35,532 bases of DNA from a bacterium. GTDB taxonomy: Bacteria > Hydrothermota > 32-111. Positions within the stretch are counted from its first letter, which is position 1. The number at the start of each line of letters is the position of its first letter. Shown one piece after another: positions 12,001-15,000 of this stretch. Position numbers: made by a program. The stretch covers positions 1 to 35,532 of the forward strand of contig JBFXGO010000024.1 in assembly GCA_050239825.1 (NCBI GenBank). The letters run 5' to 3'.

Positions 12001-15000
12001 CACATATTTAAAAATTTTGTATGAAGTGTCAAATCTGTTGTTTAGTCCTGTAATAATGCTGTTTGTATCTGAAATTGAATCCGAATAGTAGGAGTTGTCA
12101 AATGAATGGGAATGGGAATAATTGATTCCGCCGGGGATGATGTTTTTAATTTTCGCAAAATTGACTTTGCGCGTATAACCGCTGTATGATGGAAGCTTCA
12201 TCCTCACACTGTTGTCCGAAAAATCCTCATTTCTGGAAATTGACGCAATCAGGCTGTATGAAGTGAAATCCTTTGACAAAGACAAAAAGGATTCGGCATT
12301 TCTTTTAAGAACCACAGCCGTCGTATCCGTATAGTCGGTGACAGTCGAGATGTCTGAAATGACATCCCACCTGCTCTTCAAAGAAATATCAGACGGAAGC
12401 ATGTGGGTGTAAGACCCGTTGATGCTCCACCTCTTCCTTCCCGTGAGTTCGCTGATGTACTCTCCGTTGAGGGCAAGCGACAAGAGAGGAGAAACAAGAA
12501 CATTGAGTTCATACCTGCCTGCTATGCCCCTAAGTTCGTAGAGGTCGACAGAAAATGTCATATCCGAAAAATCATTTGTTGCATAAAAATAGGATATGTC
12601 TTTTAAATACTTTCCGTCGGATGCGCTGTAACCTGCCTTAGGCATGAGAAACCCGCTCTTTCTGGTTGTCGCAACAGGTAAAACAAAGAATGGAACCGCC
12701 ATAACAGGCACATTCTTGACGAACATCACAAAGGGACGCACTATCACTCTGTCGTTCTGGTACAGATGCATCTTGGAAGCATAAAAAGAGTAATGCGGAG
12801 TATCGGACGAACATGTTGTGAAATGTCCGTTGTAAATGAAATATTCATTATCCTTTACTGCGAATATCCTCTCTCCAGTCAGATACCCCTTGTCTATTTT
12901 CGTTTTAGCGCGAAAAATGGAGCCTTTCTTCGTATCATAATTGAATGCTACGGAATCTCCGACTATCTTGAAGTCATTCATGTTTAGGGTTATATTCCCC
13001 TTTCCAAAAAGCATCTTCTCTTCTTTTGAAATAAGAATCGTATCTCCGGAAAGATTAAAGTCTTTTGAATTTATCTCTATTGAGTCGCAGAGCAGTATAG
13101 ATTTTATTTCATTGTCATATATAATCGTCTCTGCCTTATATTCTATTTTTCCCGCAGAAATCAGCACCGGCAGAAGAGCCAGTGCCGCAATTAAAAGAAG
13201 CTCAGGTCTTCGCTTCATCCTTTTCTGTGTACATTAAAAGAATTAGAAGACAGACTCCGATGAAAACAGACGTATCTGCAATATTGAAAATCGCAAATCT
13301 GTGCCTGCCGATGCCAAAATCAAGAAAATCTATCACTTCCCGGTATTTGAATCTGTCGAATCCGTTTCCGAAAGCCCCGCCGATTATCATAGAGAGTCCG
13401 ATTATCTTAGGTTTGTAAAAATTTGTCTTTTGGAAATATACTATCACAAAAATAACTGCGATAGCCGATAGAAACATCATTACCCAGTATCCTCCAAAAT
13501 TAATAGAGAATGCGGCATACGGATTTCTAACATAAGTGAATCGGAAAAAGTTGCCGATAACTTCTGTGGACTGCCCTTCAAACATATTTTTTGAAATCAG
13601 TATTTTGGATAGTCGGTCAAAAAACAATACCGTCAAAGCCACGGGAATACCGAGAAGAATTTTTTTCTTCATTTTTTTATAATTTTATCCGAACATTTCA
13701 AGCAGAGTTTTGCGTAAGGAATCGCCTTAAGCCTCTTCTCCACAATCTCTTCTCCGCAAAGCTCGCAAACTCCATAGGTATTGTCCGACACCTTCTGCAA
13801 CGCTGAATCAATTTCCCTTATCTCTTCCATGACCTTGTTCATATTGATTGTATTTCGCTCCAGCATTGCCGCGTCTGTTCCGATATCGGCGCTGTGATAC
13901 GGATAGGTTGATGTCTCCGAATTGTTGTAGTCATTTGAATTCAACTGCTCTTCATATCCTGTAAGAATCTTCTCCTTATCCTGCTTCAACTTTTTAAGGA
14001 GTTCCTCAAACTGCTTTTTTGTTTTCTTGTCCATTTATACCTCCGCTTTTACTGCCTCAGCGCATTTTTCGCAGAGCTGGGGATGTTTGGCATCATGCCC
14101 GACCGTATCAAGGTACAACCAGCATCTCGCGCATTTTTCGCCTTCTGCTTTTTCTGCCTTTAATGCGTAGGATAGTTTCCTGTCCTGAAACTCCTCGCCG
14201 GATTCGTTGTTTATATTCACATTGGATACTATGAAAATCTGACTAAGTATGTCTTTGTATTTCTCAAACAGAGACCTTGTCTCTTCATTATGAGGATTCA
14301 AACAGATGTTTGCTTCAACAGACTTTCCGATAATTCCGCTGTTGCGCATTTTTTCAAGAGACATCAGGGCATTTCCTCTAACCGAAAGAATGAATTCAAA
14401 ATCATCTTCTATTCCGGCATCGATGTAGGAATTCATCCTTTCATTCACCACTTCCATGTGCACGGATTTCTTTTTGTTCGGCTTTTTAAAATGCATATAC
14501 GCCTGCTCCGCAGTAAACGGAAGAATTGGAGCTATCTGCTTCAACATATCGTCAAGCAGGAGATATACCGTATATAATCCAGATTTTCTCTCAGATGAGC
14601 TGTTTGAATATGTGTAGAGTCTGTCCTTTAGAACATCAAGGTAAAATGAAGACATGTCATTAACTATGAAATTGTAGAATTCTCTGAATACCTTGTGGAA
14701 CTCATACCCGTCATAGTATTCAAGTATTCTCTTTCTCGTATGCGCATACCTGCTTAAAATGTATCTGTCAAGTTTGTGCATTTTATCTTTTTCAATTTCA
14801 ATCTTTGAAAGGTCATTCTCGCCGAGATTTCCGAGCATGAATCTTATCGTGTTTCTTATCTTGAAGTAAGTGTCAAGAGATGTTTTCAGCAGTTCCTCTC
14901 CGAAAGGAGCATCAGATGTATAATCAATAGATGAAAACCAAAGCCGAATTATCTCCGCACCGTACTTTTTGCATATCATTTCAGGAGAGAAGACATTACC

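Follow-up and report, generated by a model that had tools for sequence, protein, structure and literature searches.

A retained DksA-like gene in WOR-3 (Hydrothermota), a phylum in which most genomes appear to lack RelA/SpoT-type enzymes

Reviews regard Rel as near-universal (PMC3153485, PMC8118318); as lacking RSH enzymes they name the PVC superphylum and bacteria that are for the most part intracellular. The DksA-like gene described here belongs to a genome in which no RelA/SpoT-type enzyme is found, as an initial annotation had claimed for its source genome and for most of its phylum. This source genome (98.97% complete, 0.27% contaminated, 67 contigs) belongs to Hydrothermota, also known as WOR-3 (the name used below) and filed by NCBI as Caldifarciminota. 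The surroundings of the gene in the window, i.e., the whole stretch of 35,532 nucleotides that was analyzed, are as follows:

10778..10799, minus strand: candidate intrinsic terminator after the HU gene (9-bp stem, T run; consensus match only)
10818..11159, minus strand: HU DNA-binding protein (PF00216)
11194..13218, minus strand: LptD-like outer-membrane protein (PF19838, E 3.7e-27)
13202..13672, minus strand: lspA, signal peptidase II (TIGR00077, over cut-off)
13669..14034, minus strand: DksA-like C4 zinc-finger protein, 121 aa, Chlamydia/YteA type (HxAD tip), site-2 residues decayed by sequence
14035..16788, minus strand: ileS, isoleucine-tRNA ligase (TIGR00392, 892.8 bits, over cut-off), directly upstream of the DksA-like gene
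16788..17414, minus strand: upp, uracil phosphoribosyltransferase
17429..18118, minus strand: TPR protein, whose gene opens the probable transcript
18149..18177, minus strand: candidate sigma-70 promoter before the TPR gene (10/12 matches, TG extension; consensus match only)

The genes run in the order TPR-upp-ileS-[DksA-like]-lspA-lptD-HU, and their stops and starts abut or overlap from upp to lptD. The DksA-like gene directly follows the stop of ileS and overlaps the start of lspA by 4 nt; its position between lspA and ileS (14034-13669, minus strand) and its length of 121 aa are as initially annotated. Sites matching the promoter consensus number 25 against 19.8 expected in shuffles, and Rfam gave no match within the window. 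Among 32 WOR-3 loci of the gene, lspA adjoins 14 and a class-I tRNA ligase gene 25, with one or the other present at all 32, and we take the gene order of B. subtilis to be ileS-ylyA-lspA.

RSH enzymes in the source genome and across WOR-3

RelA/SpoT synthetase and hydrolase domains are missing from the 99% complete source genome. Pfam profile searches gave no match at E<=10 for the synthetase domain (PF04607, RelA_SpoT) or for the HD_4 hydrolase domain, and custom HMMs derived from 9 long and 12 small RSH proteins of WOR-3, run with --max against 35,237 six-frame ORFs of the genome, reached best E values of only 0.93 and 1.4, respectively. A broad synthetase HMM reached 0.99 and tblastn 0.046, while blastp with E. 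coli SpoT gave no match at E<=1 and neither Ppx/GppA nor Ppk was found. The top match of an HD HMM (E 0.0088) is a 544-aa protein, presumably RNase Y. Pfam, custom HMMs and tblastn hence all bear out the annotated absence of the synthetase. Of the other domains first reported as absent, HD_4 has indeed no match, whereas TGS has a single one that stays below threshold, with 19.1 bits against a cut-off of 22.2; the 351-aa frame concerned (C27:16170-17222) lies outside any Rel-like frame, and we take it to encode a YchF-like GTPase.

Our sample of the phylum comprised 272 genomes, 181 of them high-quality and nearly all of them fragmented bins. PF04607 is present in 19 of the 272 (11 of the 181) and a long Rel in 8 (9 genes; 3 of the 181), with synthetase scores of 148-156 bits and HD_4 in the same long frame; long Rel is missing from the source genome and from ca. 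97% of the sampled WOR-3 genomes. It was detected in both genomes of family f8, in five of the six of family f9 and in G076 from family f16, whose gene we rejected as probable contamination: it sits on a 1.8-kb contig, is 88% identical to f9 Rel and comes from a genome with 8% contamination, and the other three f16 genomes are rel-negative. Two of the f8/f9 proteins (P0001 and P0002) combine HD_4, SYNTH, TGS, AH/RIS and ACT within one intact frame, their ACT_4 matches falling just under the cut-off. Lone synthetase domains (37-77 bits) are scattered over 11 further genomes from eight families, and hydrolase-only matches occur in five genomes. No synthetase domain is found in any of 14 genomes of the source genome's own family, which extends the absence first noted there. 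An earlier count of 3 synthetase-positive genomes among 31 was fair as a sample, but it missed the two Rel-bearing families. One of the lone synthetase domains shares its frame with a weak phage-portal match.

The same synthetase search was applied to control phyla, which are samples drawn at a requested completeness of at least 90% and are named after the record titles of their central genomes. It was positive in 60 of 61 Gemmatimonadota (59 of 60 without the unpublished G433), 51 of 51 Zixibacteria and 51 of 51 Eisenbacteria (50 of 50 without the unpublished G506), and in 7 of 101 Planctomycetota, none of them above 84 bits. That the absence in WOR-3 is an artefact of incomplete bins or a weak search is largely refuted and almost certainly wrong: bins dominate the sample and one genome (G038, 93%) lacks rel although five of its six genus mates carry it, but the same genomes yield RpoC (48 of 48 chosen), Dtd (60 of 60 chosen) and the DksA-like gene (235 of 272), the identical search is positive for 98-100% of the genomes from three further phyla that are also rich in bins, and six single-contig WOR-3 genomes (G133, G147-G150 and G193) have no PF04607 match either.

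These counts support the view that most of WOR-3 is without any RSH enzyme, and a Rel-based stringent response is therefore absent there. The initial claim of a phylum without a ppGpp-based stringent response can be kept, as far as Rel is concerned, for most genomes but not for f8 and f9, a clade with an intact long Rel. WOR-3 is not named as RSH-less in the searched passages of PMC3153485 and PMC8118318, no WOR-3 rows stand among the listed rows of PMC7229694, and neither "stringent" nor "ppGpp" occurs in the searched text of two WOR-3 papers (PMC12542636 and PMC12285271, the latter with a cultured member, strain sy37). The literature searched offered no GTDB-wide RSH survey and no report that Rel is absent from WOR-3, though subscription papers or bioRxiv supplements could contain one. 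There is published precedent both for Rel-less free-living phyla (PVC; PMC3153485) and for DksA without ppGpp (Chlamydia; PMC9126822). Like WOR-3, where long Rel is rare while control genes are found, the PVC superphylum (Planctomycetes, Verrucomicrobia, Chlamydiae) includes free-living bacteria that lack long Rel phylum-wide and carry sporadic lone synthetases. WOR-3 would be a second free-living phylum without Rel, with tested relatives that keep it at 98-100%.

The DksA-like protein and its ppGpp-contact positions

The product of the retained gene matches zf-dskA_traR (PF01258) with 47 bits (cut-off 24.9; E 2.5e-12) and carries a C4 zinc finger, CxxC-x17-CxxC, whose four cysteines are present in all 33 WOR-3 proteins compared (the 30 best TIGR02890 loci, two close relatives and the source protein, not a random set). 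Its best-scoring NCBIfam model is TIGR02890 of the Bacillus YteA/YlyA/YocK family, though the 83.1 bits stay below a cut-off of 134.4 that is passed in none of the 272 genomes, and the protein is shorter than YteA; the model for proteobacterial DksA, TIGR02420, scores far below its own cut-off (57.9 vs 115.5). In Bacillus, Rel is retained and control works via GTP levels (PMC8118318), and single knockouts of yteA, yocK or ylyA leave rrn P1 activity in B. subtilis unchanged (PMC3113569).

Among solved structures, the best sequence match is DksA of Chlamydia trachomatis (PDB 6PTG, E 2.3e-13). This protein shares with that of WOR-3 an HxADxGTD tip, a gene directly before lspA and a host without ppGpp enzymes, and differs from it in having one cysteine, no zinc and nrdR upstream instead of four cysteines and ileS; Chlamydia is moreover an intracellular parasite, unlike WOR-3. 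PMC9126822 describes the Chlamydia protein as a DksA without ppGpp, its gene located before lspA, that does not complement E. coli. A structure predicted for a WOR-3 homologue of the source protein (the one in L036; pLDDT 73.7, 7-sequence alignment) shows a coiled coil and a globular DksA fold (TM 0.72-0.73), its top eight PDB matches are all DksA-type, and it agrees with E. coli DksA (PDB 1TJL, 5VSW) in the combination of coiled coil and C4 zinc finger. From this fold, we infer that the DksA-like protein would bind RNA polymerase in its secondary channel and regulate rRNA promoters. In 22 genomes of families f12-f14, the searches for the synthetase and for the DksA-like gene both came out negative, so not all WOR-3 need DksA.

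In E. coli DksA, the residues that contact ppGpp at site 2 are R91, L95, K98, R129 and K139, as defined in PMC7676912. None of the five is identical in the source protein (R91K, L95E, K98E, R129I, K139S), and these positions vary freely across the 33 WOR-3 proteins, all of which retain R125 and, at the tip, D74, with His in place of D71. As far as sequence goes, the ppGpp-contact positions of the retained protein are thus no longer conserved. One Planctomycetota and one Omnitrophota protein are likewise of HxxD type with acidic pocket residues. In contrast, orthologues from Gemmatimonadota and Zixibacteria carry a basic patch, K/Q-R-F/Y/L-H-K at 91/94/95/98/139. Positions 94, 98 and 139 are all basic in 0 of 33 WOR-3 proteins vs 105 of 109 from Gemmatimonadota, the latter being motif-selected, mutual kin to which only three unbiased picks were added; two unbiased picks agree with the basic patch, and Eisenbacteria are mixed (one partly kept, one decayed). 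This patch makes a testable prediction, i.e., that ppGpp acts on RNA polymerase outside Proteobacteria, although R129 is missing in the Rel-positive relatives, too.

The pocket is decayed as well in four DksA-like proteins from Rel-bearing f8/f9 genomes. On the polymerase side, N680-K681 of beta' is R-R in the source genome and intact in 8 of 49 WOR-3 sequences vs 4 of 5 outgroups, position 680 being Q in f8/f9, and omega of the source genome is without the N-terminus seen in E. coli. Site 1 is not diagnostic, since both the outgroups and WOR-3 deviate from its residues. It is probable, judging from these residues, that the DksA-like protein acts on RNA polymerase without ppGpp, and the proposal of a factor working without its alarmone gains sequence-level support from the lost contacts.

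Evolutionary history of rel

All our trees are quick searches on one gene. In a rooted RpoC tree (IQ-TREE; 49 WOR-3 rows covering all 43 families, five related-phylum rows and E. coli), WOR-3 forms one clade (SH-aLRT 99), and f8 and f9 together form another deep inside it (SH-aLRT 99). With G076 counted as absent and G038 as present, the distribution of rel takes two changes, a loss and a gain, vs about eight separate losses by hand count, or about six with branches under 95 collapsed. We consider it likely that rel was lost once near the root of the phylum and that f8 and f9 later regained a divergent rel beside ARPP-1. This neighbor precedes the f8/f9 gene at five of five long loci read, while Eisenbacteria show recJ>rel>dtd at 11 of 12 loci.

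Vertical inheritance, with rel retained only in f8 and f9 and lost independently, many times over, in the other families, is in our judgment unlikely. It would explain why the Rel proteins of f8 and f9 group together just as their hosts do and why no clear donor is found for them, the closest outside relatives being about 47% identical. In a 65-row Rel tree, WOR-3 Rel is monophyletic and falls outside the clade of Zixibacteria, Gemmatimonadota and Eisenbacteria (support 100), but an AU test, run after removing 15 redundant or long rows, does not reject its grouping with these related phyla (p=0.0515), and regain is therefore favored rather than proven. However, vertical inheritance needs about six to eight losses, it leaves the gene beside ARPP-1 rather than recJ/dtd or gmk, and the DksA-like proteins and beta' N680 (Q) of f8/f9 are already decayed. 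A decayed pocket in genomes that bear Rel fits a regain after decay.

The search for a donor of f8/f9 Rel was flooded by Actinomycetota or unlabelled matches. A widespread mobile cassette of ARPP-1 and rel was rejected: of 80 ARPP-1 loci from metagenomes, a single one carries rel, and this one is f8-like (85% identical). Contig C27 of the source genome (DHH gene ... dtd-yicC-gmk-rpoZ) is not a scar of recJ-rel-dtd, as the closer RecJ match lies on C34. At WOR-3 dtd loci, yicC follows in 25 of 30 and one gene type, presumably DJ-1/PfpI-like, precedes in 19 of 30, whereas Eisenbacteria have no yicC-gmk after dtd; no clean scar is left.

A loss of rel caused by amino-acid auxotrophy, with no biosynthesis left to switch on, appears improbable. 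The source genome has no tblastn match for most His, Trp, Ile/Val, Thr, Arg and Met genes, and hisD is found in only 44 of 272 WOR-3 genomes but in five of six from Rel-bearing f9. Yet hisD is equally rare in Zixibacteria (2 of 40) and Eisenbacteria (7 of 40), which keep Rel; it occurs without Rel in f25 (2 of 2) and f26 (12 of 16), and f8 has Rel without hisD. These counts, from one marker gene only, refute auxotrophy as a sufficient cause; it may still have been permissive.

Under our preferred sequence of loss and regain, rel would have been lost once near the WOR-3 root, the DksA-like factor would then have had its ppGpp pocket decay, and the f8 and f9 clade would have gained a divergent rel again, the scattered lone synthetase or hydrolase domains being later, patchy arrivals. 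The nearest sister phyla of WOR-3 may lie outside the three tested, and the loss could then predate the phylum. WOR-3 is not part of PVC and forms, in the RpoC tree, a group separate from relatives that keep Rel, which would make its loss an independent one; a further difference from PVC is its nested clade with intact Rel. Loss, pocket decay, regain and alarmone-free control together are probably the best overall explanation of the data.

Growth control without ppGpp

How such bacteria might match ribosome synthesis to nutrients can be asked within WOR-3 as a natural comparison, given its three states: Rel-less genomes that have the DksA-like gene, f8/f9 with a probably regained Rel, and f12-f14, where neither of the two is detected. 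The initial annotation had pointed to cyclase-STAND proteins, c-di-GMP and c-di-AMP enzymes, and protein genes in rRNA operons as substitute controls. The enzymes are indeed present in the source genome, with five cyclase proteins of 1213-1349 aa and a shorter one, one DAC, four ORFs with a GGDEF motif and two with an HD-GYP motif, but neither they nor the genes in rRNA operons could be linked to growth control. That these systems replaced the alarmone as growth-rate signal is improbable: nothing was found to connect them with ribosomes, starvation or the DksA-like gene, and 11 of 14 control genomes have DAC, too, most of them Rel-positive.

Even less probable is a (p)ppGpp-like alarmone still produced in WOR-3 by an enzyme that our searches would miss through its divergence or another fold. 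Profile searches are blind to unrelated folds, and of the 12 small WOR-3 synthetases an HMM from long Rel alone recovers 7 and misses five at E<0.01, so that a very divergent small synthetase could escape detection in the source genome, in which the targets of ppGpp elsewhere (Hpt, Gmk, GuaB, PurF, ObgE) are present. Against this stand the broad synthetase HMM, which finds nothing, and the joint absence or decay of synthetase, hydrolase, Ppx/GppA and the DksA/beta' pocket.

For alarmone-free control itself, a possible though far from secure model is that NTP supply would set rRNA output together with secondary-channel factors, i.e., the DksA-like protein and, in the source genome, a single 730-aa GreA fusion, while HPF would store idle ribosomes. 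The genome encodes HPF and de novo purine genes alongside the proteins named above, and the GreA fusion is its only Gre factor. A wider joint reading, which we offer tentatively and regard as doubtful, is that the phylum as a whole lost the stringent response independently and in a traceable order: rel was lost, the DksA-like and beta' pocket decayed, and rel was regained by a clade whose polymerase would no longer read ppGpp. As its corollary, ppGpp site 2 would be functional outside Proteobacteria in the DksA-like proteins of Gemmatimonadota and Zixibacteria, and Rel-less phyla would converge on alarmone-free control in which a long GRAD-type GreA joins a DksA-like factor. The nearest Atlas clusters of the 730-aa protein are long GreA of this type (0.92-0.93), with Acidobacteriota, Planctomycetota, Spirochaetota and Verrucomicrobiota as their most frequent sources. 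Its kinship with the long GreA of PVC and spirochaetes rests on these clusters because a single-sequence search with the N-terminus gave only eight representatives, and the taxa with long GreA overlap the Rel-less phyla but extend beyond them.

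Site-2 patch and coiled-coil tip of DksA-like proteins

Where Gemmatimonadota and Zixibacteria carry Rel, their DksA-like proteins (loci L542, L543, L347, L382, and L331-L449) retain a basic and aromatic patch at the positions that form the ppGpp site 2 of E. coli, and these sequences hint that a working ppGpp site may exist outside Proteobacteria. Within WOR-3, the DksA-like proteins of family f9 (L545 and L546) carry Asp at both coiled-coil tip positions like E. coli DksA, whereas the remaining phylum has His-x-x-Asp. No ileS or lspA match was found within 1.5 kb of these f9 genes.

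Distribution and context of RSH domains

Directly upstream of rel in f8 and f9 lies an ARPP-1 gene (PF20208), and the genes flanking this pair differ between the two families:

L070:5814-8830, ARPP-1 and rel
L069:8135-11393, ARPP-1 and rel

Across the 22 genomes of families f12-f14, neither the synthetase nor the YteA-family profile TIGR02890 gave any match; the RpoC branches of f13 and f14 are among the longest in the RpoC tree. The synthetase search was also without match in G279 (L330; 4.8 Mb, completeness not stated), a genome that encodes a Gemmatimonadota-like DksA protein.

In two genomes in which no synthetase was found, the HD_4 hydrolase domain is fused to a SAM hydroxide adenosyltransferase:

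L032:736-1995 (G060), fusion protein
L033:658-1995 (G059), fusion protein

An 883-aa frame at L013 (G020:C262) contains a RelA_SpoT domain together with a weak phage-portal match.

Other genes of the window and of its genome

Two further features of the window are:

25519-26064, minus strand, HD-domain protein of 181 aa (PF01966, not HD_4)
371-2525, minus strand, Rrf2 regulator, then prismane/hybrid-cluster protein

Elsewhere in the genome (G000) lies a gene run that is conserved across WOR-3 (loci L491-L520) and includes what we take to be a DJ-1/PfpI-like gene:

G000:C27:2231-7968, DJ-1/PfpI-like gene, dtd, yicC, gmk

The sole Gre factor of G000 is a 730-aa GreA with an N-terminal extension of 560 aa, and its Atlas neighbours are GRAD-type long GreA proteins from PVC, spirochaetes, and Acidobacteriota:

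L556:2386-4575 (G000:C35:4385-6574), minus strand, long GreA
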